64,000 nucleotides of DNA from positions 96,001 through 160,000 of the forward strand of contig CAWJTV010000011.1 in NCBI GenBank assembly GCA_963845755.1, given 5' to 3'. How positions within the stretch are numbered: the first letter of the stretch is position 1; each line of letters begins with the position of its first letter. This document shows positions 15,970-49,121 of the stretch, piece by piece. The stretch comes from an uncultured Planctomycetota bacterium (GTDB taxonomy: Bacteria; Planctomycetota; Planctomycetia; Isosphaerales; Isosphaeraceae). The position numbers and the translations under genes are program-made. The notes beneath the pieces are model-generated. The model was not told the DNA's origin. It worked only from the letters and a program-made list of their open reading frames with translations, and did no database searches.

Positions 15970-16087
15970 CAGGATGCCGCAACTTTGGAATTTCGTTAAT
16001 GCACCTACGACGGTTTCTAGCTGTTTTCGCGGCGCAACCCTCGGTATCAACACGAATTAAGAATTTTCAAAAAATTTTTTGCGCTGG
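15970..16087 (-). promoter_or_regulatory. Conserved upstream element, copy 1 (terS-terL operon)
   Basis: Reverse complement of 15970-16007 matches 42308-42345 at 35/38 nt; A/T tract 16061-16087 matches 42228-42254. Confidence 0.75.
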
Positions 16088-16156
16088 AGATTAGCTCAGC
16101 TCATCTCCTTATCAAATGTTTACCAAGGCGTCTTTTTCCTCTTCCCCCGACGGCGG

Positions 16157-18029
16157 TTAGCGGGTTGCTGGGGGTGGCCCGTGGCCCACCGGGGGCAGGA
16201 AGTGCGGCCGCGCCGTGTCCACCGGCAGGACCTCGCCGGGGGGTCGCGTCGAGCTGATCTCCTGGGCCGGGTACCCCAGGGCGTGGAACAGCTCGAACTG
16301 CGCCCGGTTGTACTCGGAGACCGTCGTGAAGTATTCCTCGAAGGCCACCCACAAGAGTTGGAGCGCAAAGACCGCTTCTTGTGGACGGTTGATCAGGACC
16401 AGGACGTTGCCGAACCGCTTGATCTGCGTCAGGCCCTCGAAGTTGCCGTTGAGATTGATGATGCCCGTGCGGAGGGCGCGATCGGCCTGGAGGACGCGGG
16501 TGGCCGCCAACTGGACGCGCGCCAGGGCCCGGTTCACGTCCGCCGCCACCCGGTCCTGCGCGCGGTAGAGATCGACGATGGCCTGCGATTGCTGGGCCCG
16601 TTGCCGCTTGATCATCGCGAGGTTGCCGAACCCGAAGTTCTGGAGCTGCCACACGAGCTGGACGCTGACATCGTCGCGGCCCCTCCACTGGTTCATGAGG
16701 CCGTTGGGGCCCAGGCCGAAGATCCCGCCCTGGATCAACATCCCGCCAGGGGACTGGAAGCCGCCGATCACGACGGTGGGGAGGGCCGGGCGCATCGTCT
16801 CCCGGCGGATCCCCGCCGTCGCGGACTCGATCATCGCTTTGCGCGAGGCGACCTCGGGCCGGTTGGTCAGGGCGACGGACATCAGGTCCTCGAGCGAGCG
16901 GCCGGGGTCAACCAGCGTGATCTGGAGGTGGTCGTGCTCCAGCGGCTCGACGACGGCGCGGGGTCCAGCCGCAGGACCTGCGTCAGGTTGGCGCTTGGAC
17001 CCGCCACTGCTGCCGGGCTGAGACGGCCCGCTGCTGGAGGTCGGCGACCATGTTCTTGGCCCGCTCGACCTCGAACTCCACGACCAGGTCGCGGCTCATC
17101 GAGGCGAGCCGCTCGACCAGCTCGTGCCCCCGCTTGACGCAGTAGAGCGCACCGGCGTACTTCCCGCGATACTGGTGCACCAGGAAGTAAGCGTCGGCGG
17201 TCCGGAGCAGGGCGTCGTTCTTGGCCGACTGGACATCCCAGTGGCGGGCCTTCAGGGCCTGCCGGGCCACCAGGGGCTGGTAGATCGCATCCGTCGTGGC
17301 GATGGCCCCCCAGAGGCCGCCACCGCCGTAGAAGTAGTTGGCGCTGACCGCGGTCATAATGCCCTTGTTGAAGTCCGGGCCGCCGCCGTCGTGGCGGAGG
17401 TAGTCGGCGCCGACGTTGATCCCGGGGAGCCAGAGGACCTTGGCCTGCTGGAGGTCGGCCTCGGCGACCCAGACGCTGGCCTGGGCGGCGGCGACGATCA
17501 GCGGCCGGGCGTCGGAGAGCCGCAACGCGGTCGCCAGGTTGATCGGAAAGCGGAGGTCGGTCGGCACGAACGGCGCTGGGTCGAGCTTGACGGTCAACTC
17601 CAGGGGGGAGGGTGGCAGTGCGGCCGCATCGCTCCTCTCCTGCGCACGGCCCGGAGCCGCTCGCGACGGCAGGGGCGACAGCACATCGTGGTCGTCCACG
17701 CTCGCTGGGCGGTTGACAGCCGATGGCGCGGTCGTCCCCGGCCGTGAGGATGGCCCTTGCCAGTGGCCCGGTGACGTCAGAGGGATCGGCGGCGGGGCCG
17801 GTGGAGGCAAGTCCCGGCCACTTTGTCTCATGAAGCGTTGGATGACGGGGGACACCGTCAACGGCGGCAAGGGCGGCGGCTGTGTGGGAGGCGCGGGGTT
17901 CGTCGGCGTCGCGCCGGTCGGGGGCTGGGCCGCGCGCGCCGGAGACCCGAGCCAGGGAAGCAGCGAGGCTACGATCAGCATCCAGGGCCAGGCAGATCGT
18001 TGCCTCATTCGAAATCCCACTCCCATCAT
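16157..18029 (-). CDS. TolC-family outer membrane efflux protein, paralog 2 (frameshift near 16985)
   Basis: RFPINLATALRLSDARPL, ALTNRPE, EYNRAQFELFHALG; signal peptide. Confidence 0.8.
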
Positions 18030-18105
18030 GATCGCTCGCCCCGATTAAGGCGTCGGCGGCTCCAACCCGTCCGGATTTCGCGGGGAACCCGGGGATGACC
18101 GGCGT

Positions 18106-19776
18106 TCATCGGGTGGCCGGGGGCGGCCCGTTACCGACCACCGGCAGGAAGGCCGGCCGGGCCGTGTCCACCGGCTGGACCTCGCCGGGGGGCCGGAGCC
18201 ACGAGACCTCCTGGGCGGGATAGCCCAGGGCGTGAAACAGCTCGAACTGCGCCCGGTTGTACTCGGCCACCGTGGTGAAGAATTCGTCGAAGGCCACGTT
18301 CAAGAGCTGGAGGGCATAGACCACCTCCTGCGGCCGGTGGATCGGGACCAGGACGTTGCCGAAACGGCTGGTCTCGGTCAGGCCCTCCAGGGATCCGTTG
18401 AAGGTGATGAGGCCGGTGCGCAACGAGCGATCGGCCTGGACGACCCGGGCGGCCGCCGACTGTACGTCCGCCAGGGCCCTGGTCACGTCCGCCGCCACCC
18501 GATCCTGGTTCTCGAACAGCTCGATGATGGCCTGCGACTGCATGCCGCGCTGCCGCTTGATCATCGCCAGGTTCCCCAGGCCGAGATTGGAGAGCTGCCA
18601 TATGGGCTGAAAGCTGAAGTCATCGCGGCCAACCCACTGGTTCATGCTGCTGTTGGGGCCCAGGGCGAAGATCCCGGCCTGCAACAGCTCGAGGGGGGTC
18701 TGGAAGCCGTTGAGCGCGACGTTGGGAATGAGCATGCGCACCCTCTCGCGGCGGATCGCCGCCGCCGCCGCCTCGACCATCGCCTGGTGCGAGGCGAGCT
18801 CGGGCCGGTTGGTCAGAGCCATCGGCATCAGGTCCTCGAGCGAGCGGCCGGGGTCAACCAGCGTGATCTGGAGGTGGTCGTGTTCCAGCGGCTCGACGAC
18901 GGCGCGGGGGTCCAGCCGCAGGACCTGCGTGAGATTGGCGCTCTGGACTCGCCACTGCTGCCGCGCCGTGACCGCTTTCTGCGAGAGGTCGGCGAGCATA
19001 TTCCGGGCCCGCTCGACCTCGACCGCCGGGACCAGGTCGCGGCTCAGGGTGGCGATCTGCTCGACGAGGTCGTGCCCCCGCTCGACGCAGTAAAGCGTCC
19101 CGGCATACATCCCGCGCACCTGATGCACGCGGAAGTAGGCGTCGGCGGTCCGGAGCAGGGCGTCATTCTTGGCTGTCTGCACGTCCCAGTGCCGGGCTTT
19201 GAGGACCTGGCGGGCCACCAGGGGCTGGAAGATGGCATCGGTCGTCGAAATGATTCCCAGGGCCGGTCCGGTCATGCCGGCACCGGCGTAGAAGAAGTTG
19301 GTGCTGGGCGAGGTCAGGATGCCCTTGTTGAAGTCCGGGCCGCCGCCGTCGTGCCGGATGTAATCGAAGCCGATATTGAGGTTGGGGACCCAGAGGACCT
19401 TGGCCTGAGCGAGATCGGCCTCGGCGACCCAGACGCTGGCCTGGGCGGCGGCGACGATCAGCGGCCGGGCGTCGGAGAGCCGCAACGCGGTCGCCAGATT
19501 GATCGGAAAGCGGAGTTCGGTCGGCAGCGGTGTCGCCGTCGGGAGCGTCAGGCCGGTGTCGAGCGGGCTCGGGCCCATCGCCCCGGTCTCGCTCGGCGCC
19601 GAAGCCGGCGGCGAGGGCTGGGCTCGCCGACTCCGATCGGGAAGGACGACCGGGGGCGCCGGCGAAGGCGGAACGGGCGTCTGCGCCGTGCAGGGGGTGA
19701 ACCCGACCCACGAAAGCAGCATAGCCCCACCGAGCATCCCCCTCCAGGTGGATTGTCCCATGACCCCATCCCTCAC
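18106..19776 (-). CDS. TolC-family outer membrane efflux protein, paralog 1
   Basis: Same motifs as its neighbour; intact ORF; lies in the RND locus. Confidence 0.82.
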   Translation of the reverse strand: MRDGVMGQSTWRGMLGGAMLLSWVGFTPCTAQTPVPPSPAPPVVLPDRSRRAQPSPPASAPSETGAMGPSPLDTGLTLPTATPLPTELRFPINLATALRLSDARPLIVAAAQASVWVAEADLAQAKVLWVPNLNIGFDYIRHDGGGPDFNKGILTSPSTNFFYAGAGMTGPALGIISTTDAIFQPLVARQVLKARHWDVQTAKNDALLRTADAYFRVHQVRGMYAGTLYCVERGHDLVEQIATLSRDLVPAVEVERARNMLADLSQKAVTARQQWRVQSANLTQVLRLDPRAVVEPLEHDHLQITLVDPGRSLEDLMPMALTNRPELASHQAMVEAAAAAIRRERVRMLIPNVALNGFQTPLELLQAGIFALGPNSSMNQWVGRDDFSFQPIWQLSNLGLGNLAMIKRQRGMQSQAIIELFENQDRVAADVTRALADVQSAAARVVQADRSLRTGLITFNGSLEGLTETSRFGNVLVPIHRPQEVVYALQLLNVAFDEFFTTVAEYNRAQFELFHALGYPAQEVSWLRPPGEVQPVDTARPAFLPVVGNGPPPATR

Positions 19777-19898
19777 TGCATCAAGGGAGTCGCGGTACGA
19801 TCAGCGCGTCGGCCGCGCCGATAGGACCGGATCAGAGGATTTATCGACCGGGACGGGTGGCCGGAATGATAACGATTTTGCGGGATGGGCGGGATTGA

Positions 19899-21659
19899 TC
19901 AGGGCGCTTTCGGGGAAATATCGGGCTTCTTGGCGATCTCCGTCTCTTCGAGGACCTTCCGCCACGCCCTCGCCTTGTCAACCTGGCCCCAGGCTTCGTA
20001 GAGGCTCACCAGGCGTTCGAGTGCCTTGATGAGGTGGGGCTTGTCCTGGGGCGGTATTTTGTCCTCACGTTGTTTCATGCCCTCGTAGCCCGCAACGAGC
20101 CGCGGTTCGGCCTCGGCGAATTTCCGTTGCTCCAGGAGCGCCCGGCCCAGGAGTGACTCCGTGTCGAACGTCACCCAGTCGTCGGGCTGGAGCTTCTGGC
20201 GCATGGCCAGGCTCTCGCGCAGCTTCAGCTCAGCCTCGGCGAAGTTCTTCTGGGAGAGTAGCAGCGATCCGCGGACGGCGAGCGCCGAGGCGCGGGCGGG
20301 CGAATTGAGATCGCGTTCATAAAGTCGCCCCCCCTCGTCCGCGCGGCCAGCGAGCCGGTAGGCGACGGCCAGTTGATTGCGGCAGGCGGCCGTATCGGGA
20401 TGGTTGAGTCCCTGCATGGCTTGCCGCAAGCCGAAGGCCCGCTCGTACTCCTTGACCGCCTGCGTTGCGTCTCCCAGACTCAGGTACGCCAGGCCCAGCA
20501 TCTCGCGGAGTGAGGCTTCGGCCAGGGGCCGGTCCGTGAACGCTTCGCCGACCTGAGCCTCGGTCAGATCCACCGCCTTGCGCAGCGTCACGTCCTTGCC
20601 CTGGCCACCGGTCCAGAAGGCCTCCGTGAGCGACACCGACCCCGGCCGGCCGGCCGACAACAGCGAATTCTTGAGGAACGCGAGGATCGCTTTCTTCTCT
20701 TCTTCCGAGGCCCGCGCCGTCTTCTCCGACTCCCGGGCCTGTTGGAGTTCCTTCACGGCGGCCAACCACGCCACCTCTGCCTCGACGAGCTTGCCCGCGC
20801 CCGGGTTCTTCTCATTCGAAGTCGAATTCTTCCTCGTGCCGGCCTCCTGGCTCGAGTCGGATTCGTCGCTCGAGTCCGCTCCCTGACTCGAGTCGGGGCC
20901 CTGGCTCGATCCACCCTTGCTCGATCCGCCTTTGCTCGATCCGCCCTTGCTCGATCCGCCCTTGCTCGATCCGCCCTTGCTCGAAGACGTCTCATCTCCC
21001 GACTTGTCCGACCCGAAGAAGTAGGAGTAGCCCCAGGCGCCGACGACCCCGCAGACCAGGGACACGACGCCCGCGAACAATAGGATCCGCGTGAGCGAGG
21101 GTGACTGGGCCGACTGGCCGAGCCATTTCTTGGCGCCCTCGCCGGAGCCCTTCTGATCGTCGTTCTGGTCCTGCTTGCCAGGGGACCGGGCTTTCTTGGT
21201 GTCGCCCTCCTGCCCACCCTGGCTCTTGGAGCCCTTGCCCTGTTCGCCCTTGCCCTGTTCGCCCTTGCCCTGCTCGCCCTTGCCCTGCTCGCCCTCCTTC
21301 ACTTTCCCCTCCCCGTTCCCTCCGCCGGAACGGTCCTGCGATGGTCGATCCGGTTCGATGGGGACCATGACAAAGTTGGGATTGAACGCCTCGTTGGGCT
21401 CACGGATCCGGTTCGTCTGGACGACCATGATTCGATCGGGGTGACTCGCCCAATCGGATTGGATCGCCGGTCCCAACGTGATGATCGGGGCGGTGGTCTC
21501 GATGACCTGAGGGGACTCCGGCCCGCGGCTGCGGGGCGACTCAGACCCCTGTTCCGGCTCCTGGCCCTGGTTCGAATGGGACCCGTGTTCCTGGTCTTGA
21601 TCCTGGGGCGCGTCGGATCCTTGTTGCTGGTCTTGGTCCTGCTGATCTTGACGTTCCAT
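19899..21659 (-). CDS. Single-TM tetratricopeptide-repeat protein with low-complexity linkers
   Basis: TM helix, GKGEQ and SSKGG repeats, C-terminal TPRs (LGLAYLSLG, HPDTAACRNQLA, AEAEPRLVAGYEGM). Confidence 0.75.
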   Translation of the reverse strand: MERQDQQDQDQQQGSDAPQDQDQEHGSHSNQGQEPEQGSESPRSRGPESPQVIETTAPIITLGPAIQSDWASHPDRIMVVQTNRIREPNEAFNPNFVMVPIEPDRPSQDRSGGGNGEGKVKEGEQGKGEQGKGEQGKGEQGKGSKSQGGQEGDTKKARSPGKQDQNDDQKGSGEGAKKWLGQSAQSPSLTRILLFAGVVSLVCGVVGAWGYSYFFGSDKSGDETSSSKGGSSKGGSSKGGSSKGGSSKGGSSQGPDSSQGADSSDESDSSQEAGTRKNSTSNEKNPGAGKLVEAEVAWLAAVKELQQARESEKTARASEEEKKAILAFLKNSLLSAGRPGSVSLTEAFWTGGQGKDVTLRKAVDLTEAQVGEAFTDRPLAEASLREMLGLAYLSLGDATQAVKEYERAFGLRQAMQGLNHPDTAACRNQLAVAYRLAGRADEGGRLYERDLNSPARASALAVRGSLLLSQKNFAEAELKLRESLAMRQKLQPDDWVTFDTESLLGRALLEQRKFAEAEPRLVAGYEGMKQREDKIPPQDKPHLIKALERLVSLYEAWGQVDKARAWRKVLEETEIAKKPDISPKAP

Positions 21660-21829
21660 TGAACTGCCCTCCCACAGTCAAGCCTGCTGAGATCGTACGC
21701 AACGCGCGTGCCGCGTGATCCGCCGGGCTCCAATTTGCGCATTTAATAATTCGCCGCCGCATAAGAGCCAGTGATCTCGAGCGCTGCACGATTTGGACTG
21801 CGCCTGCGCGAGGAATCCCCTGACCCTCT

Positions 21830-21895
21830 GTAGGGTGCTCTGCGAGCACCAAAGCGTGCCGGCCGCGGGGGATCGGTGCTCACAGAGCACCCTAC
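21830..21895. repeat. REP/REPIN-like inverted repeat (GTAGGGTGCTCTGCGAGCACC...GGTGCTCACAGAGCACCCTAC)
   Basis: GTAG-headed 21-nt palindromic units in inverted orientation. Confidence 0.8.
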
Positions 21896-21931
21896 GTCTA
21901 TGTCTCGTGTGCAACGCAACCGTAATGCGCT

Positions 21932-23411
21932 CTAACCACCTCCCGCCTGGTCGGACGAGGTCTCTTCCGATCCCGCCGCGATCGGCGCCGGCGACTTGTC
22001 GAGTCGCACCGGGCCGCCGTCAGTGAGGATGGACAGCTTGCTACCGATGAGCACCTGGTCCGAGGTTTCGATCGGTACCCACTTTTCCTTGAGGAGCGCT
22101 TCCGTCTTGACGCGACGATTGGTGACCGCGATCCACTGGCCATCCGAGGGCCCCGTCTGGATCTCGGTACGAATCGCGCAGGCCTTCCACGTACCGCCAG
22201 ATGAAGGACTTGCCGCCGGCGAGGGTGAGGGCCGATTTCGGCAGCGCCGGACGGCGGGGCGCTGGACGTCAACCTCGCCGTAGGCATACATCCCCGGCAG
22301 GATCTGGCTGCCGGGATTGGGCAGGTCGATCTCGGCACGCATCGTACGGCTGTGGGTGTTGAGGGCCCAGGCGATGCGCGTCACGGTCGCCTGTAGCCAC
22401 TCGTCGCGATAGGCCCACACCTTGACGCGCGCCTCGGACCCGATATGGATGTAGTTGGCATCCCGCTCGGGGACGTCAACGTAGATCCGGACGATGTCCG
22501 TGCGATCGACCACGTAGATCGGTGCGGCCTGACGGCTGGGCGAGAGGTCGGGAGCCCGATCCATGGCCGTGGGGTCGCCGGAGGTCGGCAGGACGAAGTC
22601 CCAGGTGTTGGCATTGCGGGCTACGATGATGCCGTCATAAGGCGCCAGGAGCTTGAGGTAGCCTACCCACGCCTCGAGCCGCTTCGCCTCGCTCCGGGCC
22701 ACCGCCAGGTCGGCGCGGGCGACGGCGACGTTGACCTCGGCCCGCTCCAGTGTGGCATCGGCGGCCACGAGATCCGCCTGCGCCTTCAAGATCGCCGCCT
22801 TCGCGGCGTCCCGCGCGGCGATGTTCGACTTCCACTGATTGGTCGAACTCGAGGAGGATCTGGGGGTCAACCACGGTCCGATGGACCTCGCGGGTGAGCC
22901 GCTGGACCTGGATGTCCCAGCGTTCGACTTCGGATTCATACTTGCCGAGAATTGATTGCGTCTCTTCGAGGCGCGCCTTGGCCGCCTCGACCAGGGCTCG
23001 ATCGACTTCCACATCCTTCAGGGCAAACCGGACCCGCTCCGAATCCAGCTCGACCGTAGACTTCTTCGTCGTCAACATCTCGCGCAGCTCGGGCACGAAG
23101 AGGTCGGCGAGCACGTCGCCCTTCTGGACCTTGTCGCCGATATCCACGTTCCACTTCTCGATGAATGCGGACACCTTCGGGTAGATCGACGTGCGCTCGT
23201 AGCTCTGGACGAAGCTCGGCTGCCCGACCAGGCGGACGATCTTCCGGGGCCGGGGATGGATCATCTGGAGGGCCGGGGGCTCCAGGACGCTCGGCGCCGT
23301 CGGCTCTTCCTTGGAGCAGCCGTCCGCCGCGAGGGCGGCCAGGAGCCAGAGCCCGAGTCGGCTGCACCGAGCGGAACGAACCGTGATGTCAGGCCGAAAG
23401 GCGGTTTGCAA
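21932..23411 (-). CDS. RND efflux periplasmic adaptor (MFP) subunit, frameshifted
   Basis: IYPKVSAFIEKWNVDIGDKVQKGDVLA, LLAPYDGIIVARN, VRIYVDVPE, RTMRAEIDLPN, LPGMY. Confidence 0.85.
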
Positions 23412-23480
23412 CGCTCATCTCCCGTTGCAGGTGAGACGGACCGGGCTGGCCCGCCGTGGGAATCTCTGTCCGAGAACCCT

Positions 23481-23540
23481 GTAGGGTGGGTGAAACCCAC
23501 CAGGATCGGGGCGATTCTCGGTGGGTTTCACCCACCCTAC
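23481..23540. repeat. REP/REPIN-like inverted repeat (GTAGGGTGGGTGAAACCCACC...GGTGGGTTTCACCCACCCTAC)
   Basis: Perfect 21-nt inverted pair with GTAG head, intergenic, with outer gtccgagaac/gttctcggac arms. Confidence 0.85.
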
Positions 23541-23580
23541 AAAGGCCGGACGCCGTTCTCGGACCGTTTCGCAGTCCTTG

Positions 23581-26500
23581 TCAGGGGGCCTCCTCTTCTT
23601 CCGCCGCATTGTCACCACCCTTGTCTTCCTCCTCGCCGCCGTTGCCCTCACCGAAGGCCTCGGGATCGTAGTGCGCGCTTTCGGGATTGGCCGGGTAGAG
23701 GGAGGGCGAGCGGGGTTCCTGGCGGCCGATCACCAGCGCGAAGATCGAGGGGAGGACCAGCAAGGTGGCGAACGTGGACATCACGAGTCCCCCGATCACG
23801 GCGCGGCCGAGCGGGGCCTCCATCTGGCTGCCGCGCTCCAGGGCCAGCGCCATGGGCACCATGCCGACGGTCATCGCGCAGGCCGTCATCAGGATCGGCC
23901 GTAGCCGTTCGCTGGCACCCATGATGGCGGCCTCGGTCGAGCGCTTGCCCGCCTTCCAGTGTTCGTCCATGAACGTGACCATCATCACCGAGTTGGAGAC
24001 CGAGACGCCCAGGCACATGATCGAACCCATGAACGACTCGATGTTAACCGTGGTCTTGCTGAAGTAGAGGATGGTCACGATGCCGGCGAGCACGCCCGGC
24101 ACGGCCCCGATGGAGATCAGGGCCAGGCGCGGGGATTGGAAATAGGCCGTCAACAGGACGAGGATGACGAAGACAGAGACCGCCAATCCGATCCCCAGGG
24201 CCTCGAACATCTTGCTCATCGGCGGCAGCGATCCCATCTCCTCCAGGCGGACGCCGCGGGGCAGCTCCCCGACCTCGTCGCACGCCTGGCGGACCTGCTT
24301 GGCGGCCCGACCCAGGTCCTCACCCTCGACGTTGGCGATCACGGTCAGGTACGCGCTGCGACATGTCGCGGTCGTACTCGCCGGGCCGCACGCTCTCATG
24401 AACCTGGCCGTCCTTCAACACGTCGCGGACCATCAGGGGAACATAGGGGTTGACCGACTCCAGCGGCAACTCTTCGAGATCCGACGGCTTCTCCATCCGC
24501 AAGGCCGGCACCTGGATCTGCACCAGGTAGTCGAAGCCGGTCTTCTCGTCGATCCAGTAATTGAGATTGGTGAAACGGGTCGAGGCGGTCGCCATGACGA
24601 GTGCACGCTCGACGTGCTTGAGGGTGACGCCGACCAGGCCCGCCAGCTCGCGGTCGATGGTGACCTCGACCGTGGGGTAGTCGAGCGTTTGCTCGAAGCC
24701 GACATCGCGGAGGAAGGGATTGCGCCTCAGCGCGGCGGCCACCTTCTCGGCATGCGCACGGATGGCATCATAATCGGTGCCGACGAGGCGAACCGCGATC
24801 GGCTTCGAGGAGCCGAAGCTCATGACCTGACTCACGATGTCGCCCGGCTCGAAACCGAAGGTGCTCTTGTCCGCCTGTTTCTGCGCCTCGTCCTTGGACA
24901 ATCCGCCCGTCTCCAGCCGGTTCGCCAGCCAGGGGCCCACCCGCTCGGGGAGGACCTTCCGGAGCCGCTCGCGGAACTCGTCGAGCTTGATCTTGCTGTC
25001 CTCCTTCAACTTGACGCGCAGCCAGCCGTCGTCGGGCCCGCGCATGAACAGCACCATGTTGTCGATGCCGAAGTTCGGGGCGACCTGGCCGACGAAGCCC
25101 ATCGTGATCGAGACGTTGTCGGTCCCCGCCTCGTTCTCGACCTCCTGGAGGCATTTGATCCCCATCTCGCGGGTCAGCTCGTAGCTCGACCCCGCAGGCG
25201 GTCGGAACCGCAGCACGAATTCCCCCTGATCGATCTGCGGGAACAATTCGGTGCCGACCTCGAGACCCAGCACCCCCAGGATGAGGCCGCACGCGCCGAG
25301 ATAGATCATGACCACCCAGAAGCGATGCGCGACGAACGCTTGCACGGCCGTGCGATAAGCCCCGCTGACCCGGTCGAACAGTCCGGGCTTCTTCTCGCCC
25401 TGTTCCTTCTTGTGCTTGAGCAGGTAGACGCTCATGATCGGCACGAATGTGCTGGAGAGCAGGTACGAAAAGACCATGGCGAAGCCGACCGCCAGGGTCA
25501 GCGGCATGAACAACGACCGCAGCGGGTCTTCCATGATGAACGCCGGGATGAACACCGACAGGATGCAGAGCAAGGCCAGCAGCCGCGGCACGGCCGTCGC
25601 GTTGCTGGCGTTGAGTACCGCCGTGGCGATGTTCGAGGTTTCCTCCATCTGCACGTGGGTGTTCTCGATCGTCACGGTCGCCTCATCGACCAGGATGCCG
25701 ATGGCCAAAGCCATGCCGCCCAGCGACATGATGTTGATCGTGTTCTGCGTCACCCAGAGTCCGAACAGGGACCCCATCAGGGCGAGCGGGATGTTGCAGA
25801 CGACGACCATCACGCTCCGCAGGTCGCGGAGGAACAGGAGGATCATCAGCCCGGTCAGGCCCGCGCCGATCGCGCCCTCGGTGGCCACGCTCTCGACCGC
25901 ATGCACCACCGTGGGCGACTCGTCGAACTCGAAGGTGATCTTCACGTCGGGCGGGACGGCGGCGCGGAAGGTCTCCAGCGACTTGTTGACGTCGGCGACG
26001 ACGGTGAGCGTCGAGCCGGTGTCCTTCTTGATGATCGGCAGGTGGATCGCCTTCTGGCCGTTGACGAGGGCATAGCCGTAGGTGATGTCGGTGTCGTCCT
26101 GGATGGTCGCCACGTCGCGGAGGTAGACGTTCTGGCCCAGCCGGAGCGGGATGTCGCCCAGGCGCTGGATGTCGACCACCGTGGCGTTGTTGTGGACGAT
26201 CGGCATCGCGTCCTTGACGTAGATGTTCCCCGACGGGATGACGACGTTCCCGTTCTTGAGGGCCTCGACGACGTGCTGGGGGTTGAGGTTGTATTCGAGG
26301 AGCTTTCGGGGATCGACATTGACGATGATCGACCGCATGTTCGGGCCGAATGGGGAGATGGCGACCGTGCCGGGGACGTTCTTCTGCACGAGTGGCCGGA
26401 TGATGTTCTGCGCCAGGTCGCCCATCGCCCCGATCGAAGTCTTGTCGCCCTCGCTGGTGAAGACGAGGTAGCCGATCGGGACGCTGCCGGCGTCCATGCG

Positions 26501-32235: not shown

Positions 32236-32437
32236 TTCCAAGACCCTCGCTGAAGACGGGCCAATCGGGAAGCGTAGCTTTCCCGCCTCATCCTCATGAT
32301 AATCGGAGATTGGCTCTCCATCCACCACATAGGACCGAGTTCCGTCGCCCACGACCGTCTCGTGAATCGGAATCCTGTGAGTCAGACGGGACACCGGCTG
32401 CTTGAACCCTTCGCTTTATCGACCGGAGGTACCGACC

Positions 32438-33076: not shown

Positions 33077-33315
33077 GAGGACTGCCGGTTTCGAGAATCC
33101 TCCGCAATCGAGAATCTCGAATCCGGTCAAGTCCGGCGTAGGAAACGCCGATGGTAAAAGATGAGTGGGAATCTCGCGCGGCGGGCCGCCCGCCATGTGT
33201 ACGAGTCGGGTTCCGGGGTTGACAGTCGAGTCAGTTCGATTAAAGTCGCCCGCAGTTCATCTCAGTTCCCGATCGCGGCCCGTCCGTGCGTTTGTCATCG
33301 ACCACGAAATCCGCC

Positions 33316-34185: not shown

Positions 34186-34188
34186 GCG

Positions 34189-37109
34189 ATGTCCGAATTG
34201 ATCTCGAATCCGACGTTGGTGCCCGAGCCGGAGGCCGTGGACTCCGTGCATCTCCCCGCGGATACCGGCCCGGCCGAGTCGGCACCCACCAAAGTCGTCG
34301 TCCGTTACCGTGCCAATGCCGATTCCTCGGATTCCCGCGACACTCTCGAGGAGCAGGCGGATCCCAACGGACCCGAGATCCCTTCGGCGCCGGATCGCGA
34401 TTTCGGCGCACACCGGCGTCGAGCGCGTGCCCTGGCCCGCGTTCTGGCCAGCAGCCTCGGCACCATCACGAAGGCCGGGATCCACGGAGCCCTTCGCTAT
34501 CCCCGATCAACAGCCGTGGCGGCCCTCTCCCTGCTGATCCTCGGCGCCATCCTTCGCACACAGCCCGACAAGCCAACGCCGAAGGCACAGATTGACCAAA
34601 GACCGTCGGCCATCTCGTCCGCCGAAAAAAAGGGGACTGGGGAGAATAATGAGCCGGCGTCGAATGTAAGGCCGATCGTGGACAACGACGTTCCTTTGAA
34701 CACGGATACCGGGAAGAACCCGGCGAAGGAAAACGGTCAGCCGCCGGCCTCACCCCCGAATTCGGCCTCCAGTCCACTGCCGCCCCTCCCGGTTGATGCG
34801 GTGGCTCAAGGACAAACCCAGCCTCCCGAGAATCCAGGAACCGAAAACGGACCCGTGGCCGGAAACGCGGTACCCGCCCCGCGCCTCCACACCTGGCCGA
34901 GCAGGGCGACGCCACCATTTTGACCCCCGCGCTTCCGGACTCGGCCCCCGCACCGTCACCTTCGAGCGCATCATCTCCGACCCCGACAGAGTCCGCGCCG
35001 CACCCCGGCACGACGAATTCAACCGTCTCGAAGTCGGGGCCGGAGTCGCCGGCGCCCGCCCCATCATCCGACGAAACGCTCCCGACCTCCCTGGCAGAAT
35101 TGCCGTCCGCTCCGTCGTCTCCCGTTTCACCGCCGAATCTGACGACCCATCCACCAGCCGATCCAATACTACCTCCCGTCGGAGAGGACCTCACCCTGAC
35201 GAGCGGGGAGAAGAGTGTGGGTTCACCGTCGAGTCCCTCAACCTCATCTGGGACCGTCGATAAGCCGTCTGACCCCGCCAAAGGATCGGCCGCGAGTCCC
35301 AGTCCAGGTCCCGTTGTGCCCAAGACCGCTGCATCGAAACCCGAGGAAACGAAGACGGAAACCATCCAGAAACCATCAGAGTCCCAGGGCTCGATCGCAG
35401 AACGGCCAACGACCCAGCCCGATTCACCCAAGTCGAACGTCCCGGTCTCCCAACCGCCCACACCGAAGCCTGACCAACCCACAGACCCCTCGACATCCGG
35501 ACCCGAGATTCCAGGATCCGCGCCACCCCAGCCACAGGTTCCCCCTCCCGCACCCGGACAATCCGGGCCTGGCGAGACCACAGGTCCCGAACTCCCCAAG
35601 GTCGAGGCCCCCGCGACGACGCCCGAGACATCCAATACCGGACCGATCACACCTCCTGCGACGGCCACGGTTCAGGACCTGAAGCCAGAGTCCGGGCCGG
35701 CCAGCCCCGATACCAAACTCGAGCCCGCCGGCCCGCTGCCTCCCCAGACAATTCCCCAACCGGAGGGCCCTAAACCTCAGATCGCGCCTGGGGCCGAGAC
35801 GGTGCAGCCTGGCACCCTGAAGGTGGAAGACTTGACGCCTGTCACGACGGCGATGCCACCTCGACCGCAGGGGACGGTGGACGAGCCAAAGGCCCGCGCA
35901 CCGGAGGCGGCGAGCTCCCCATTGAAGGTTGGGGAGGCCCCGAATCAATCCGGCATTTCAGGCCCGCATCCGGTATCCGAACCACCTGGGCCGAGGAGCC
36001 AGGACATGGCTCCCCGGAACGAGCCTGTTCTGACAAAGCCGGATGAAACCAATCCAGTGACAGCTCGCTCATCAGCCAGTCCGCTCCAGGACGAGTCGGT
36101 TGCAAAGAGGGTGCGGCTCCCCAATACCGGCAAGCTCTCGGCCGCGGGCGCGATAGGGGACCGATTCGATCCGGTCGGAGGGGTCGCCGGCACCGTGGCC
36201 GAGCCAATCCGCGACGCGAGCGCTCATGCCGACAAGGACCTGAGCTTCGATGTCGAATCGCCTCATGAACGCCCAAGCAATCGTACAAGTCCGGGATCGG
36301 ATCAGGCCGAAGATCGCCCGCCACCGCGACCGGCCAGCTCCAAACCGTCCGCCGGTTCCCGGCTGCCAAACGAGCCCCGCGCCGAAGCGGTCTCACCCCG
36401 AGTCGAGGCCGTACCCCACATCGTCGAGCGCGGCGAGAACTTCTGGACGATCTCGCGGTTGTACTACAACAACGGACGCTATTATCGCGCGCTCTGGAAA
36501 GCGAACGACCAGAGAGTCCCCAAGATCGACGAGTTGCCCGTCAATCAAGTGATCGTGATCCCGCCCGTCGAAGATCTCGACCCGGCTTACATCGACCCGC
36601 CGCGCGTTCGATCGGCTCTCGGTGGAATGAACCGGGGAGCGCCTGGTGCGAGGGTCGCGACATCGGCTCCGGTGGCCGGGCGACCCGAGTCGCTCCCGAC
36701 GACGAGGACGGCCCCGTCATCGAGGTTTGCTTCGATCCGTGGCATCCCGACGAGCCGTTCCGATCGGACCGATGCGGTACTCGAGCTACCCATCGGGGAT
36801 ACCGGCTCCCCCCGACGCCGTGGCAGCCGCCAGGTCGGCGACGAGACCCATGACGACGGGACGGAGACGCGCATGACCGCACGGCCCCGCGCCTCTGCCC
36901 CCGTCAGCCGGCCGGTCTACAAGGTGCGCCGTTATGACACCCTGCGCTCGATCGCCCGCGATACCCTCGGAGATCCGCGCCGCGCCGATGAGATCCTCGA
37001 TCTCAATCGCGACATCATCGACGACCCAACTCAACTGATTTCCGGTCAACGCATCGAATTACCGGAAGATGCTGATACCCGTCGCATAACCATCCGAGAT
37101 CGATACTGA
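34189..37109 (+). CDS. Membrane-anchored Pro-rich protein with two LysM domains (frameshift near 34890)
   Basis: TM helix, long P/S/T-rich linker, HIVERGENFWTISRLYY and YKVRRYDTLRSIARDTLGD LysM motifs. Confidence 0.8.
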
Positions 37110-37437
37110 CACACTGCGACGGCTGAACCCAAACCCCCGCGCACCGCGGCGCCGCCTTCAGAATTCGCGCCGATCTCCACCGCGTCATTCGGCACGCCCA
37201 GTTCGATGGCTGCGGCGTCCGCCCATCCAGATTCGGAGCCGACGCTTCCCTCGTGGAAGCGTCAAAGCTCGTCCTCCGTGTGTCAGAATCTTGCATCCCG
37301 CCCCTGCCGCGTTTACTCTCGGGGCTTCCTCCTTGTGCTCTCTCCTTCGTCAGAGCCCCTAAAAAGGGGGCTGGCTTCGAAGACCCGGAGCCAGTCCCCC
37401 TTTCGTTAGCGACTCTTATTCTTCCTCGGATGGTCCC

Positions 37438-39779
37438 ATGTGGTTGCGCACCGTGAGTCTGACGGCGATTGTGATCGTCTTCCTGGGGAGGCTGGACAGC
37501 GCGGTGGTCGGGGCGGAAGAGTTCGGCCCCCCGTTGCCCGGTACGAAACCCTTGACCATGACCGGCGATATCGCCAGTGAGCTGGTGGCGGGTGTCAACC
37601 GGTTCCTCTTGAAACAAATCGATGCGTCGACCGCGAAACGAGCGGCGTACTGGAAGCGGGATTTCACCTCTTCCCAGGCGTATCAAGCCTCGGTCGAGCC
37701 CAACCGCAAGCGGTTGGCCCACATACTGGGAGTTCGCGAACCACGGACGGCTACTCGAAAGGAAGTGGTCGATCCGGCGATTCTGGCGGCGCCTGGCCAG
37801 GGGACCCAAGTGGTGAGCTTGACCTGGCCGGCCTTCGGCGACGTGACCGGCGAGGGATTGCTCGCCGTCCCCAAGGGCCCGTCCACCATCGACCTCAACA
37901 TCATCGTGATCCCCGACGCCGACCAGTCGCCCGAACAGCTCATGGGCGTCGTCCCCGGTGTGCCGCCCGCTTCGCAGGTTGCCCGCAGGTTGGCCGAAAG
38001 CGGCTGCACCGTGGTCGTTCCCGCGCTGATCGATCGAACCGTGGCTCCTCGCAACGGCCGGGCCAAACTCACAAATCGGGAATTCCTCTACCGCTCGGCC
38101 TTCGAGTTAGGTCAACACCTGATCGGCTACGAGGTCCAGAAGGTGCTGGCGCTCGTCGACCTCCTGAGCCGACCCGACACGGCCAACGGCGGCTCCGCGA
38201 GCAAAAAGAAGATCGGCGTCTTCGGCTATGGTGAAGGGGCCGAGATCGCGCTGTTTGCCGCAGCACTCGACCCGAGGATCGACGCCGTCTGTGTCAGCGG
38301 CTACTTCGACGACCGCAACGACGTCTGGCGACAGCCCGTCAACCGCAATGTCTTCGGGCTGCTCGAGCAGTTCGGCGACGCCGAGGTCGCCTCGTTAGTC
38401 GCGCCTCGGCCGTTGATCGTCGAGGCGAGCAGGGGCCCTGAATACCTCATCCCCACAGGGACCGGCGGCGCGCCGGGCGCCTGGTCACTCCGAAGCTTGA
38501 AACCGTCAAGGCCGAGGTTGAACGTGCGCGCCATCTTATCGCGGACCTGAAACCCACTCTTCAGATCGATCTTGTTACGAGCGGATCTGACGGAAACGGT
38601 CCTTTTGGGACTGAAGAGGCGCTTCAGAAACTCCTGGAAGCGTTGAAACCCGGCGCCAACCTCTCCGTTCGCGAAACGCCGTCTGTTCGATTCGACCAGA
38701 TTCCCCTGGGTCACACAAAAAGTCGCCAGGAGCGACAGCTTCATGAACTCGACCGTCATAACCAGCAGCTTCTGGTGGAAAGTCCCGACGTACGCCGTGA
38801 GTTCATGAAGAAGCTCGATACGAGCTCGATCGACGCCTACACGAAATCCGTCGAACCCTACCGGGCTTTCTTCGCGAATGAGGTCATCGGCCGGTTCGAC
38901 CTCGAGCGGATGCCTCCCAACATCCGCTCGCGCCGGATCTATGAGGAGTCGAAGTTCACGGGCTATGAGGTGGTGATGGACGTCTTCCCCGAGGTCATCG
39001 CCTACGGCATCCTGCTCCTCCCCAAGGGGATCAATGCGGGCGAGCGGCGGCCCGTGGTCGTCTGCCAGCATGGCCTGGAGGGGCGGCCGCGCGATATCGC
39101 CGATCCCCAGGTTGATAATCCGGCCTATCACCGTTTCGCCGTCCGTCTGGCTGAAGAAGGTTTCATCACATTTTCGCCTCAGAACCTCTACATCTTTCAG
39201 GACCGATTCCGAACACTCCAGCGCAAAGCCAATCCCTTGAAAAAGACGTTGTTCTCCGTGATCGTGCCCCAGCATCAGCAGATTACCGACTGGCTCAAGA
39301 CGCTGCCGGCCGTCGACCCGGCGCGCATTGCCTTCTACGGGCTCAGCTATGGGGGCAAGTCGGCGATGCGAATCCCGCCGCTGGTCGAGAATTATTGCCT
39401 GTCGATCTGTTCGGCCGATTTCAACGAATGGGTCTGGAAGAACGCCTCGACGCAGAGCCTGTATAGCTACGTCTGGGGCGGCGAATACGAGATCTTCGAG
39501 TTCGACCTGGGAAGCACGTTCAATTACGCCGAGATGGCGGCCTTGATCGCTCCCCGACCGTTCATGGTCGAGCGGGGCCATTTCGACGGCGTCGCGCCCG
39601 ATGAGACGGTCGCATACGAATTCGCCAAAGCGTATCACCTCTATCACGCCCGGCTGGGAATCGGGGATCGCTGCCGGATCGAGTTCTTCGTCGGTCCCCA
39701 CACCATCAACGGGAAGGGCACGTTCGCCTTCCTGCGCGAGCACCTGCGCTGGGCCGAAACGCGCGAGAATCGACAATAA
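37438..39779 (+). CDS. Secreted tandem alpha/beta-hydrolase (dienelactone hydrolase-like), frameshifted
   Basis: VFGYGEGA..AAALDPRI; VCQHGLEG; FYGLSYGGKSAM; LIAPRPFMVERG. Confidence 0.8.
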
Positions 39780-39830
39780 AATCGACATTAATAAACTCCA
39801 GCGACTCCACTTTCCGGAGCTGATCCGCGT

Positions 39831-41728
39831 TCATCCGCCGGCGCCCGCCATGGCCGAGGTCTGCTGGCGATGGGTCTCGGCATAACGGCCACCTCGCGCG
39901 ATCAGGTCGGCGTGAATCCCCTGCTCGACAATCCTCCCGGCTTCGAGGACGACGATCCAATCGGTGCCGCGAACCGAGGCGACTTTGTGCGAAACGATCA
40001 CAAAAGTTCGCCCCGGAAGACTGCGATCGAGAGCCTGCTGGATGCGGGATTCGGTCTCGGAATCCAGGGCGCTGGTGCAGTCGTCCAGGAGCAGGACGGT
40101 TGGCTGGGCCACGACCGCGCGGGCCAAGGCAAGCCGTTGCCGCTGGCCGCCGGAGAGCGAATAGCCTCGCTCGCCGACAGGGGTATCCAGTCCAGCGGCC
40201 AGGGAGGCGACCGTGTCGGCGAAATCGGCGATCCGAAGCGCTTCCCACATGTGGGCGTCCGTCGCCTCGGGATTGGCGTAGAGCAGATTCGTCCGTATCG
40301 TCCCCTCGAAGAGGAGGGCTTGCTGGGGCACCAGCGCCACGGCCCGCCTGAGATCGGCCAGCTTGACCGCGCGAACGTCTCTGCCATCGAAGCAAACCGC
40401 ACCCCAGGGCCTCCCATGGACGTCGATCCCCTCGGGGACATCATAGAGTCGTGGGACCAAGGCCAGGAGAGTCGACTTGCCAGCACCACTGGCGCCCAGG
40501 ACGCCGAGACGCATCCCCGGCTCGATCCGCAGGTCGATATCGACCAGCACCTTGGCGCCCTCGGGCGAGTACGCGAACGAGACACCGCGATACTCGACCA
40601 TCCCGCGCGGGGCGACGATTGAGGCGGCGCCGGGGCGGTCGCGTACCGGCTCCGGCTCATCGAAGATCTCGTAGAGCCGCTCGACCGATACCTGGGTCGC
40701 CAGGGCGGTCGCCTGGAACTGCGTCAGCCGGACGATGGGCTGATAGAGCTGGCCCACCAGCGCATAGATCGCCAGCAACTCACCGACGGTCAGCAGGCCG
40801 CGGCCGACCAAGAGGATGCCGTAAGCGATGACGAACACGGTCCCGAGCCCACTGATCAGGGCCGCCAGCGCCCCCAGGGCCGCCGCGGTGCGCGTGTTGT
40901 CCCAGCTCAAGTCGCGGTGACGGTCAATCCGCTCGTCCAGCTCGTTGAGCTCGTCTTCCTCCTTGGCGTAACTCCGCACCACCCGTACGGCCGAAACGCG
41001 CTCGCTCAAGAGGGCATAGAGCGTGGCAACCTGCGCGCGGATCTCGTCGGAGAGCCGGCGCAAGGTCCCGAAGAAAGCCCTCTGGTTGAGGGCATACAGC
41101 GGGACGGCCACCAGGGCAACCAAAGCGAGACGCCACTGGAGCCAGGCGAGTAAGACCGCGATGGCCATCGACAGGATCAAATCGTTGAGCAACTGCAAGA
41201 TGCCGCTCCGGATGAACATCAGGATGCTGCCAACATCGCTGGTGACTCGGGCCATCAGCCTGCCGGTCTGCTGCGCGTCGAAATAGGCCATCGGGAGTCG
41301 CATCAGCTTGCGATGCAACGCCCCGCGCAACGCAACAACCACCTCCTGGCTAATCCGGCCCATCATGGCGGCGATCCGCCACGCCAGCGCCGCACGCGCC
41401 GCATGCAGGACGATCGTGGCGCCAAAGTCGTCGCGATGGCCCGGATGACCGAGGAGCGAGAAGGTCCAGCCGAAACTGCAGCCTGTCCGGAGAGGACCGT
41501 CGTCGGAGATTCGGAGGATCGCGATTGCCCGACAGCCTGGCAATAGGCCACCAGCCGATCGACCACCCAACCTTGCAAGAGGGGGATCGGCAACAACAAG
41601 ACAGACTGGACCAACAACCCCAGCAGGCCCAGCAAGATCAGTTCGCGATACGGACGAAGGAACTCGGCCTCGAATCGGCGTAGGACCGCGGGCGTCAGGA
41701 GTGGAACCCGATCCTTAGTCGAGGTCAT
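39831..41728 (-). CDS. ABC exporter, fused TM + ATPase (MsbA-like), frameshifted N-terminus
   Basis: GASGAGKST, LSGGQRQRLALARA, LLLDDCTSALD, VSH; ABC membrane domain. Confidence 0.9.
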
Positions 41729-42227
41729 TCGTCCAGAAGCTAGGGGTAAGGGAGCGTCACGATGCGTGACAGAAACCGGGCTCGACAACCAGTCTTCCCC
41801 GCGAGTCAAGCTTCGAGGCTACAATATCGCCCGGAACGGAGGATCCTGGATTCCAACGCGTCTGGCGATCGATCGAGTCGATGGTTAACTCGCGGACGGC
41901 GGCCGAGGATTGCTCAGTATCTGACGAAGGTCTCGCGGCAGGCAAGGGGAAGAGATCGCTCAACCGCGCAGTAAGCCTCTCCGAAAGCCAGGCATACCGG
42001 CTCAGAAAGACAGTGCCTTCGCTGAGACCCTGAGTCTCGCGGTCTGACACCCGCCCGAAAAACACGCACGATTGCATGAATTGAAAGCGTCCCGTCGATT
42101 GCTCTTTCGGGAATACACGTCGCTACCTGGTCAGACCGAGCGGAATTTCTGCGCATTCTTTGAGAAGAGTACTGGACTAAAGATCACTAAATGGAGCCTG
42201 AATAGCGGATTTTGGGGGTCATAAACA

Positions 42228-42345
42228 CCAGCCAAAAATTTTTTTGGAAAATTTACAACTCCTTTCTCATTTGTCATTTACGCAGAAAAATCCCGTAAAA
42301 TTCGGAATAGGTGCATTAACGAAATTCAAAACCTGCGGCATCCTG
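42228..42345 (+). promoter_or_regulatory. Conserved upstream element, copy 2 (morphogenesis cluster)
   Basis: ccagccaaaaatttttttggaaaattt ... taggtgcattaacgaaattcaaaacctgcggcatcctg, homologous to 15970-16087 on the minus strand. Confidence 0.75.
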
Positions 42346-49114: not shown

Positions 49115-49121
49115 TCGATCG

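Follow-up and report, generated by a model that had tools for sequence, protein, structure and literature searches.

Two phage-like operons of a Planctomycetota genome are headed by copies of a dispersed, promoter-like intergenic module

Phage-like operons and intergenic modules at the locus

The window, i.e. the whole stretch of 64,000 nucleotides that we have analysed, lies on contig C11 of a 14.3-Mb Planctomycetota genome (G000; window coordinates are C11 coordinates minus 96000), and it has been compared with a congener (G001, 87% complete) and with a genome from another genus (G015). Two phage-like operons are located in the window, each behind an intergenic module: copy A (15961-16099, reverse strand; C11:112099-111961) matches positions 9-147 of the 150-position nhmmer model at 106.7 bits, and copy B (42214-42356, forward strand) matches positions 7-149 of 150 at 90.3 bits.

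The first good ORF behind copy A encodes the terminase small subunit, TerS (15346-15666, reverse strand; phrog_2538, E 1.3e-09; GC3 0.89); the operon continues with the terminase large subunit, TerL (12922-15395, reverse strand, by family matches), which is split by an intein that contains an HNH endonuclease. The N part of TerL is located at 13923-15395 and the C part at 12922-14619, in frames that overlap, and the apparent frame change falls inside the intein. Behind copy B, the first ORF (42370-42774, forward strand; 134 aa) matches no family and has a homolog at the same place in G015; further downstream lies the head-tail cluster (46691-52789, forward strand), with the portal at 46691-48778, the scaffold at 50703-51452 and the SU10-type major capsid protein (MCP) at 51527-52789. 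Between the two copies, about 26 kb (16157-41570) are occupied by ordinary cellular genes: two OEP genes, HlyD, AcrB, TPR, an Lhr helicase, DUF1501, an MraW-type methyltransferase, LysM and an ABC transporter.

The order on contig C107 of G015 is the same as around copy B, i.e. ABC flank, module (G015:C107:38049, reverse strand), homolog of the 42370 ORF, and onward; copy B is orthologous to this module, which heads a homologous head-tail cluster, and is an old, orthologously conserved head of the phage-like cluster. In G015, TerL adjoins the portal; the TerS-TerL pair behind copy A has therefore been relocated, being shifted by ~30 kb and inverted relative to the G015 arrangement, and copy A heads an operon that has moved away from the head-tail cluster.

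Anatomy of the two copies

The similarity of the two sites was first reported in the initial annotation, and most of its description agrees with a direct comparison of the sequences: the reverse complement of 15970-16007 and the site at 42308-42345 are identical at 35 of 38 positions, the A/T tract is located exactly 53 nt upstream of TAGG in both copies, the DNA is AT-rich (GC 0.47 at 42001-42400, against ~0.64 for the genome), and each copy points into its phage-like operon, copy A into TerS/TerL and copy B into the portal, scaffold and SU10-type capsid cluster. The degenerate pattern TAGGTGCATTAACGAAATTCNAAANNTGCGGCATCCTG fits both 38-nt sites with no mismatches, and 100 shuffles of the window contain no match of this type. 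The shared element had been estimated at ~120 bp; in our alignment of both regions the similarity spans ~145 nt, with 62% identity, while a repeat search of the window reports the pair as 74 nt at 74%.

Read from 5' to 3', the cassette begins with an A/T tract (about -120 to -95) and a GAGAGTT box (about -80), followed by box 1, TAGGTGCATTAACG, which ends in the -35-like hexamer TTAACG, by a T-rich variable stretch, by box 2, AAAGTTG(C/A)GGCATCCT, which ends in the -10-like hexamer CATCCT, and by a short A/T-rich close. The A/T tract, a conserved block of the family consensus, is ccagcgcaaaaaattttttgaaaattc at 16061-16087 in copy A and ccagccaaaaatttttttggaaaattt at 42228-42254 in copy B. Box 1 is TAGGTGCATTAACG in both copies, at 15994-16007 (TTAACG at 15994-15999) on the reverse strand and at 42308-42321 (TTAACG at 42316-42321) on the forward strand; box 2 is AAAGTTGCGGCATCCT at 15971-15986 in copy A (CATCCT at 15971-15976) and the AAAACCTGCGGCATCCT region at 42329-42344 in copy B (CATCCT at 42339-42344). 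A sigma70-family holoenzyme would be expected to initiate about 7 nt past CATCCT, i.e. near 42351 (forward strand) and 15964 (reverse strand), and to transcribe the downstream operon. In copy B, a purine-rich, Shine-Dalgarno-like stretch follows at 42353-42368, and then the GTG at 42370, 25 nt past CATCCT.

A genome-wide family of intergenic modules

The scan of this genome and its relatives that the initial annotation had proposed has returned 105 module copies of ~145 nt each, spread over many contigs, in G000 (nhmmer), at least 125 in the congener and low copy numbers in two sister genera, the family being largely limited to one genus. Simpler searches separate the family well from their controls: a 20-mer with up to 3 mismatches finds 46 matches against 0 in the reversed control, a 14-mer with up to 1 mismatch finds 83 against 2, and a 48-nt position weight matrix finds 104 matches at 40 bits or more, none at 10-40 bits and none in the reversed genome. 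The median pairwise identity of the family is 49%, and conservation is block-wise: the spacers vary in sequence and are fixed in length.

All 105 copies are intergenic, and no good ORF overlaps any of them. In 63 cases the closest downstream gene runs in the same direction as the module, in 22 it runs against it, and in 20 no gene is called, whereas upstream genes show no orientation bias (42 vs 36); the gene calls behind these counts, including the 22 of 85 called genes that face the module, come from a crude GC3 heuristic. The downstream ORFs (51 scanned for the 105 copies) belong to diverse, unrelated families, such as purA, hisS, kinases and ECF sigma factors. At the orthologous hisS locus of G001, the core, from TAGGTGCA to the -10-like hexamer, is almost unchanged, whereas the flanking intergenic DNA has diverged. 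The first 400 nt behind each of the 105 copies contain no tRNA or tmRNA, which removes the reading of the module as a tRNA promoter.

Viral contigs contain no module matches, metagenome contigs contain two, and genome contigs contain at least two, those listed coming from one Planctomycetota MAG. Module-like matches also occur in G015:C153 and in G012, where the downstream ORFs are uninformative. The sequencing runs in which this DNA is detected include no RNA run; they are soil metagenomes, with small shares of the DNA.

With a probability of roughly 0.6, we read the pair in the window as two copies of a dispersed, lineage-specific, intergenic, promoter-like cassette of ~145 nt. Each copy is one of 105 modules, and the phage-like operons would therefore have the same type of promoter as about 100 host operons that are unrelated to them. 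The shared promoter of the initial annotation thus stands in part: the same promoter-like module does head both operons, but with 105 copies it is not specific to phage genes. The private phage regulon does not stand, as the initial annotation itself had named occurrence across the genome before unrelated genes as the observation that would speak against it; a false lead is thereby removed, the apparent regulon signal being a genome-wide repeat.

A phage-specific promoter or activator site, defining a regulon of two operons under the 42370 protein, would account for the module at both phage-like operons and for the position of the 42370 ORF, which comes first after the module in both G000 and G015. 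The late-operon promoters of phages that encode their own activator, such as the P2 Ogr and Mu C systems, are repeated elements with sites confined to the phage, and the module resembles them in heading packaging and head operons; it differs from them in being overwhelmingly chromosomal and located before housekeeping genes. The 105 copies before unrelated host genes and the absence of matches in viral contigs make this explanation very improbable, as do three further observations: neither a 42370 homolog nor the capsid cluster is found in G001 (87% complete) despite its 125 or more modules, no module lies within 6 kb of a related TerL in G001, and a profile search with the 42370 protein gives no family match and hence no DNA-binding family match. 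The proposal that this protein is the regulator does not hold, since a plausible regulator of the family would be expected to have a homolog in the module-rich congener; within G000 the protein matches only itself. Judging from gene order, it may have a local role at copy B, which is conceivable because in G015, too, the ORF that comes first after the module is its homolog.

The initial annotation also offered the copies as ends of a rearrangement or as a packaging-related site. The rearrangement is partly real, since TerS-TerL is relocated and inverted with respect to G015, and copies A and B are mutually inverted, as such ends could be; the role of the copies as its ends is another matter. 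An inversion between them would flip the 26-kb cellular block and could not extract TerS-TerL from the gap between the 45888 ORF and the portal; the module is also found at 103 other loci; and neither copy is the other's nearest relative, A and B ranking 5th and 4th of 99 and each having 3-4 closer relatives elsewhere in the genome. Nothing links the module to packaging, so a pac or cos site finds no support, and we give very little credence to either version of this explanation, whether scars of the split between TerS-TerL and the capsid cluster or a packaging site.

The promoter-like core

The core consists of TTAACG, 17 nt and CATCCT. Of the 100 anchored copies, 82 have CATCCT and 18 have CATACT as the -10-like hexamer, whose first base C, A2 and T6 are present in all 100; TTAACG occurs in 63, always 17 nt upstream of the -10-like hexamer, and exact box 1 in 57. 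This arrangement matches the sigma70 consensus at 7 of 12 positions, with a -35-like hexamer that does not have the G of TTGACA, and, on its sequence, the core reads like a sigma70-family promoter. Several observations stand against the cassette as a promoter, which we nevertheless regard as the best explanation: an E. coli-type sigma70 scan calls neither copy A nor copy B, the -10-like hexamer starts with C, the -35-like hexamer departs from TTGACA, and about a quarter of the called downstream genes (22/85) face the module.

The regions before tRNA genes in G000, as judged by eye, resemble canonical TTGACA-N17-TAnnnT promoters, and so the module is not the housekeeping consensus. Inside the hexamer spacer, AAAGTTG is conserved, which is unusual for a plain sigma70 promoter; the invariant bases that flank both hexamers suggest that a lineage-specific sigma factor or activator helps or is required. 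A stronger version of this idea, i.e. that one dedicated, lineage-specific sigma factor or activator targets the module and controls a regulon of about 100 operons, including the phage-like packaging and head-tail genes, is consistent with the very high information content of the site, the lack of intermediate-scoring sites, the invariant bases outside the hexamers and the departure from the canonical promoters before tRNA genes. ECF sigma genes make up 3 of the 51 scanned downstream ORFs, and the module is found at 3 of 6 terminase-homolog loci in addition to the capsid cluster, an enrichment that was spotted post hoc. The analysis has yielded no candidate for the factor, and recent copying on MITE-like carriers can also explain the high similarity; a single dedicated factor is thus possible, although we consider it doubtful.

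Other identities of the module have been tried. Sigma54, sigma28, ECF, dif-like and parS-like readings do not fit, by eye against the consensus sequences. Box 1 resembles SP6-type promoters; a search for a T7-like single-subunit RNA polymerase (PF00940) gives no match in G000 or G001, and its control likewise matched nowhere. A search of Rfam 15 with eight loci (modules and leaders) returns only chance-level, miRNA-type matches below the gathering scores. An upstream hairpin, from GAGAGTT to box 1, is rejected (81 copies have a mean z of -0.39 and no consensus fold), and the downstream leader is supported neither as a structured RNA (a weak consensus in which compensatory changes are few; mean z of -0.46 in 39 copies) nor as a coding sequence (an open frame without a start codon, variable stops, 3-periodicity 1.01/0.85/1.09). 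To our knowledge, no promoter has been characterised in the very large genomes of uncultured planctomycetes, and our literature search on planctomycete promoter motifs and Gemmata MITEs found nothing relevant.

Carrier units and the spread of the module

Two classes of carrier units contain the module. Class-1 units are ~437 nt long, with the ends TAGAGCGCC/GGCGCTCTA; the flanks of one class-1 copy (L105) are 792 nt apart in G000 and ~20 nt apart at the orthologous site of G001, the unit being located within ~790 nt of extra DNA that is missing from the congener. Class-2 units are ~550-640 nt long, with 23-nt TIRs that have 230 matches in G001 and 55 in G000; ends of this type also bound units of 1.25-1.5 kb with transposase ORFs (DDE_Tnp_1 or DDE_Tnp_ISL3). 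Bursts of near-identical copies are seen for class 1 in G000 and for class 2 in G001.

Part of the family's expansion in this genus is due to these non-autonomous, TIR-bounded, MITE-like carriers, which took the module along. Both TIR ends are found at 11 of the 105 copies, with A and B not among them, and a subfamily of G001 is TIR-bounded as well; transposition is shown only for a minority, because 80 of the 105 copies, A and B included, have neither TIR type. The window as a whole contains no match to either type, so none is located at copies A and B.

The carriers raise an alternative in which the module has no promoter activity: it would be a selfish repeat derived from a MITE, with boxes conserved for mobility or for some other role at the DNA level. 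The presence and absence of TIR-bounded units between congeners, the class-specific bursts and the near-confinement to one genus would fit such a repeat; however, the conserved boxes are internal rather than terminal, they are kept in the many copies that have neither TIR type, the orientation favours the downstream genes (63 vs 22), and the core has been retained between species at hisS and between genera at the capsid cluster, whereas the flanking DNA of these orthologous sites has decayed. On this evidence we consider the selfish repeat unlikely.

Comparison with putative mobile promoters and related repeats

Putative mobile promoters (PMPs; Nijveen, Matus-Garcia and van Passel 2012, PMC3575422) are very similar non-coding sequences before unrelated genes of one genome, sometimes linked to insertion sequences and proposed to rewire transcription; most PMP families are pairs, with at least 80% identity over 50 nt. 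The module shares with them the occurrence of similar non-coding sequence before unrelated genes of one genome, and differs in its 105-125 members, its conserved boxes with variable spacers, its median identity of only 49%, its identified carriers and its orthologous conservation.

The Correia repeat enclosed elements (CREE) of Neisseria, cited as promoter-bearing in PMC3575422, give rise to promoters at the element ends, according to PMC2649163. The likeness is that of a small, non-autonomous, TIR-bounded intergenic repeat with many copies that supplies promoters, an activity that is predicted for the module; the differences are that the promoter-like part of the module is internal and directional instead of being located at the ends, that the carriers are of two or more types, which differ in their TIRs, and that solo copies persist without TIRs. 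The class-1 and class-2 units resemble prokaryotic MITEs in general (review PMC10969869) in having TIRs, no ORF, many copies, insertion polymorphism and ends in common with transposase-encoding elements; what copies A and B have in common, unlike MITEs, is the cargo, in a window that has neither TIR type.

The module would be a clear natural case of promoter spread, in which the carriers can be identified and the events dated: species-specific insertions, copies kept between species and one copy kept between genera. If the cassette is active, planctomycete genetics would gain an expression element that is ready for use, and the co-wiring of ~100 operons would become accessible.

The head-tail cluster as a possible vertically inherited gene set

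Gene transfer agents (GTAs) such as RcGTA offer a comparison for the phage-like head-tail cluster. The likeness would be a cluster that is passed on together with its chromosomal neighbourhood and kept by purifying selection, with packaging genes at a separate locus and with host-type promoters; unlike RcGTA, the cluster is known from its genes alone (no particles, DNA-packaging phenotype or regulator), it is not found in the congener, and TerL has an intein and an apparent frame change. We have entertained, as an improbable scenario, that the module is a lineage-specific sigma or activator site whose original home would be the head of a vertically inherited, GTA-like domesticated gene set for phage-like particles, kept by purifying selection (head-tail cluster, relocated TerS-TerL and orphan terminases), and that MITE-like carriers later copied it before ~100 host operons in one genus, wiring one regulon.

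The cluster shows, in comparison with G015, dS of 0.8-2.0 (0.91 for the flank) and dN/dS of 0.14-0.27, values from one pairwise comparison; as judged from that comparison, cluster and flank appear to have diverged together, with purifying selection acting on the cluster, which turns domesticated phage particles in Planctomycetota into a testable question. In a sample of further genera that did not include G015, the assemblies are too fragmented to show whether the ABC flank and MCP stay together. A search for the capsid cluster and an MCP homolog in G001 (87% complete) finds neither, and MCP homologs are present in 11 of the 18 genomes of the family.

A dispersed family of intergenic modules

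The similarity between positions 15970-16007, read as reverse complement, and positions 42308-42345 of the plus strand, which the initial annotation had reported, has been confirmed at 35 of 38 identical nucleotides, and so has the placement of the A/T tract, which ends exactly 53 nt upstream in both copies (16061-16087 on the minus strand, 42228-42254 on the plus strand). Alignment of the two regions shows that the similarity, also recorded as repeat I2, reaches about 145 nt and delimits an intergenic module with copy A at 15961-16099 (-) and copy B at 42214-42356 (+). One degenerate pattern fits both copies, with no such match in 100 shuffles of the window; copy B, near 42 kb, lies in the window's lowest-GC 400-nt bin (0.47). 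The ORFs located behind the copies bear out both labels, "terminase operon" and "capsid cluster": a small-terminase ORF (TerS, 15346-15666, -) and a large terminase (TerL, 12922-15395, -) behind copy A, and a cluster with the portal (46691-48778, +), the scaffold (50703-51452, +) and an SU10-type major capsid protein (MCP, 51527-52789, +) behind copy B. The intervening 26 kb code for ordinary cellular functions.

In the source genome (G000; assembly of 14.27 Mb, 64% GC, 88% complete), whose contig C11 supplies the window as positions 96001-160000, a 150-nt profile search has recovered 105 copies of the module. The first 20 nt of the motif have 46 matches with up to 3 mismatches, against none in the reversed control, and the 14-mer TAGGTGCATTAACG has 83 with up to 1 mismatch, against 2 in the control; with a 48-nt weight matrix, 104 sites score at least 40 bits, the range from 10 to 40 bits is empty, and the reversed genome yields no site. 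The layout is of fixed length across copies, which we have aligned by anchoring on GGCATCCT (100 copies; 5 further copies could not be so anchored): an A/T tract, a GAGAGTT box, TAGGTGCATTAACG, about 7 variable T-rich bases, AAAGTTG(C/A)GGCATCCT, and an A/T-rich stretch.

Genes behind the modules

All 105 copies are free of overlap with a good ORF. By crude GC3-based gene calls, the first gene downstream runs in the direction of the module in 63 copies and against it in 22, with 20 uncalled; upstream genes are without orientation bias (42 vs 36). A Pfam scan of 51 downstream ORFs (taken from the 105 copies as candidates of at least 140 aa with GC3 of at least 0.68) has identified, among others, adenylosuccinate synthetase, histidyl-tRNA synthetase, Hen1, MoxR, ThiF/rhodanese, AnmK, DndE, DUF1501, alcohol dehydrogenase and another large terminase, together with three ECF-type sigma factors and two Ser/Thr kinases. 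The initial annotation had proposed a shared promoter site that defines a phage regulon: the shared promoter-like element is retained, but a phage-private regulon is not, since the module precedes unrelated genes genome-wide, a distribution which that annotation had itself set against its proposal. Its candidate regulator, the protein encoded at 42370 directly behind copy B, has likewise been set aside: it has no family hit and occurs once in G000, and the search of the congener, G001, has turned up no homolog.

About half of the modules (e.g. L077, L076, L105-L115) are followed on their 3' side by a conserved leader (GAGATCGGGGATGG ... GTGCCA ... GTGCCA), located at +87 or about +155-169 downstream of the module; the leader box search has matched 59 of the 105 copies, a few of them, including that of copy A, being chance matches inside ORFs. 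Genes such as hisS and purA are thereby preceded by 5' regions of 300-490 nt with the leader. The leader has no match in Rfam, no stable or covarying fold has been seen in it, and as coding sequence it has neither codon periodicity nor a start codon.

The module as a putative promoter

Four features make a promoter the preferred reading. The core has a -35-like TTAACG in its TAGGTGCATTAACG part and, 17 nt further on, a -10-like hexamer, which in the 100 anchored copies is CATCCT (82 copies) or CATACT (18 copies), the A in second and the T in sixth place being invariant; when the two hisS orthologues are compared, hardly any change is seen from TAGGTGCA to the end of the -10-like hexamer, whereas the adjoining intergenic DNA has diverged; the placement of the module is intergenic and biased towards downstream genes; and in copy B, a purine-rich stretch and then a GTG occur only 25 nt after CATCCT. 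TTATACT stands at the -10-like place in some copies of the family. Counting against this reading, only 7 of the 12 hexamer positions agree with the E. coli consensus, a promoter scan of that type does not call the hexamers, the upstream regions of tRNA genes in G000 carry, by eye, the canonical TTGACA-N17-TAnnnT, and the bases that flank both hexamers are conserved as strongly as the hexamers themselves. Weighing both sides, we infer from sequence that the module is a putative sigma70-family promoter, whose activity probably depends on an alternative sigma factor or on an activator.

Carriers and spread

Two classes of carrier have been found. Class 1 comprises about 15 near-identical copies of a unit of about 437 nt with the ends TAGAGCGCC/GGCGCTCTA; at one class-1 locus, about 790 nt including the unit are absent from the orthologous site of G001, where the flanks lie about 20 nt apart, and G001 has one full class-1 copy. 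At L105 (G000:C13:15373-17208), the class-1 unit adjoins a second insertion, an element of about 360 nt that contains internal palindromes (~1136-1492). The G001 site lacks this element too, and a portion of the element has a match at a different locus of G001.

Class-2 units (about 620 nt in G000; paired ends about 550-620 nt apart in the abundant G001 subfamily) hold the module and downstream sequence between 23-nt inverted ends (GAGAGTCCTCGnCGAnnACCACC). G001 contains 230 occurrences of this end and G000 contains 55 (controls, 1-5); the end also bounds units of 1.25-1.5 kb that code for DDE transposases (PF01609; PF01610), as in the insertion sequences at G000:C34:645437-646710 (L126) and G000:C6:57290-58843 (L127), whose ends match the 23-nt class-2 TIR; these insertion sequences are likely the parents or mobilisers of the class-2 carriers. 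Most copies in G000 are solo by their ends: of the 105, 11 are enclosed by a pair of ends of the same type, 14 have a single end, and the other 80, copies A and B among them, have none. The module is present at the orthologous hisS site of G001 and absent at the purA site, so the age of the copies varies.

Taxonomic range and known systems

Across 31 genomes, a 37-nt pattern for which up to 3 mismatches were allowed has 84 matches in G000, 125 in G001, one in G015 (the next-closest genus, with purA 82% identical vs 89% for G001) and none in the other 28. Searches with a sequence-only covariance model, for which 34 diverse copies served as the seed, give at least 75 copies in G000, at least 75 in G001, 4 in G015, 7 weak ones in G012 and 1 in G039 (both of the same family), and none in 36 other genomes of the family; the 16-nt box 2, which contains the -10-like hexamer, is at background in 39 other genera of the family (0-2 matches, controls 0-3). 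There are two matches to the module in metagenome contigs and none in viral contigs, and a Planctomycetota MAG is among the matches listed by a genome-collection scan. These counts indicate that the module family is older than the genus and has multiplied only there.

The closest concept is that of putative mobile promoters (PMC3575422), alongside MITEs that bear promoters, for example the Correia elements (PMC2649163). Compared with both, the module differs in that its promoter-like cargo is internal and directional, that carriers of at least two types contain it, that it persists as solo copies, and that its members are conserved across species and genera. Our literature search has found no relevant planctomycete promoter motif or Gemmata MITE, although one may still be in print.

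Phage-like genes and their rearrangement

Contig G015:C107 (L134-L136) is collinear with window positions 39831-64000, including the ABC-transporter flank. The order in G015 is ABC-transporter flank, module, 42370 ORF homolog, a set of small ORFs, TerL immediately followed by the portal, scaffold, MCP and tail genes. Its module has diverged, yet is clearly orthologous to copy B, with a common TCCCGT...TTCGGAATAGGTGCATTAA stretch. Relative to this order, TerS-TerL in the window has moved by about 30 kb and is inverted, behind copy A. On this comparison the rearrangement itself is real; the suggestion that the two copies are its ends is unsupported, because an inversion between them would not give the observed order and they are not mutual nearest relatives: they share 62% identity over 145 nt (family median 49%), and each has 3-4 nearer relatives elsewhere in G000.

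The displaced segment (window 11000-15666, -) contains TerS-TerL and three ORFs without a G015 homolog, about 30 kb from its place in G015, between the homolog of the 45888 ORF and the portal (window 45888-46691). Homology with G001 breaks off precisely where the OEP gene ends (window 16151). TerL (12922-15395, -) carries an intein with an HNH endonuclease and occupies two overlapping frames, one with the N-extein and the start of the intein, the other with the HNH, the end of the intein and the C-extein; the frame change is either a frameshift or an assembly error. The TerL homologs in G015, G001 (L097) and G000:C28 are without the intein.

In the comparison of G000 with G015, dS of the phage-like genes is 0.8-2.0, similar to that of the flanking ABC gene (0.91), and their dN/dS is 0.14-0.27 (ABC gene, 0.11). 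MCP homologs occur in 11 of 18 genomes of the same family and in none of 12 from other families, and none has been found in G001; each capsid gene occurs once in G000. An orphan intact large terminase (G000:C28:284663-286078, L052/L129) and an orphan small-terminase homolog (G000:C26:82601-83023, L070/L130) are located among cellular genes, each directly behind a module, which by a post hoc count is found at 3 of the 6 terminase-homolog loci of G000. The substitution rates, the range of the MCP, the single-copy capsid genes and the orphan terminases make room for a domesticated GTA-like system, and the head-tail cluster could be a long-resident or domesticated element of this kind; one pairwise comparison, with the copy missing from G001, falls short of establishing this reading. 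These observations on the phage-like genes may be weightier than the original finding.

Other repeats

The region of the outer-membrane efflux protein gene is tandemly duplicated (16151-17566 / 18100-19526; 81-89% identity, period of about 1948 nt), and the gene pair is also found in G001. A partly palindromic repeat of about 73 nt (3928-4013 / 23468-23542; direct and inverted matches of 72-77%) is possibly another dispersed family. Tandem repeats with a 30-nt period are located at 8100-8643 and 58235-58950, with Gly-rich (GGC)n in a tail-fibre-like ORF (Gly_rich_2 domain). Elsewhere in G000, about 40 tRNA genes form a dense one-strand array at C41:590256-593590, and a smaller array lies at C20:450492-451036.
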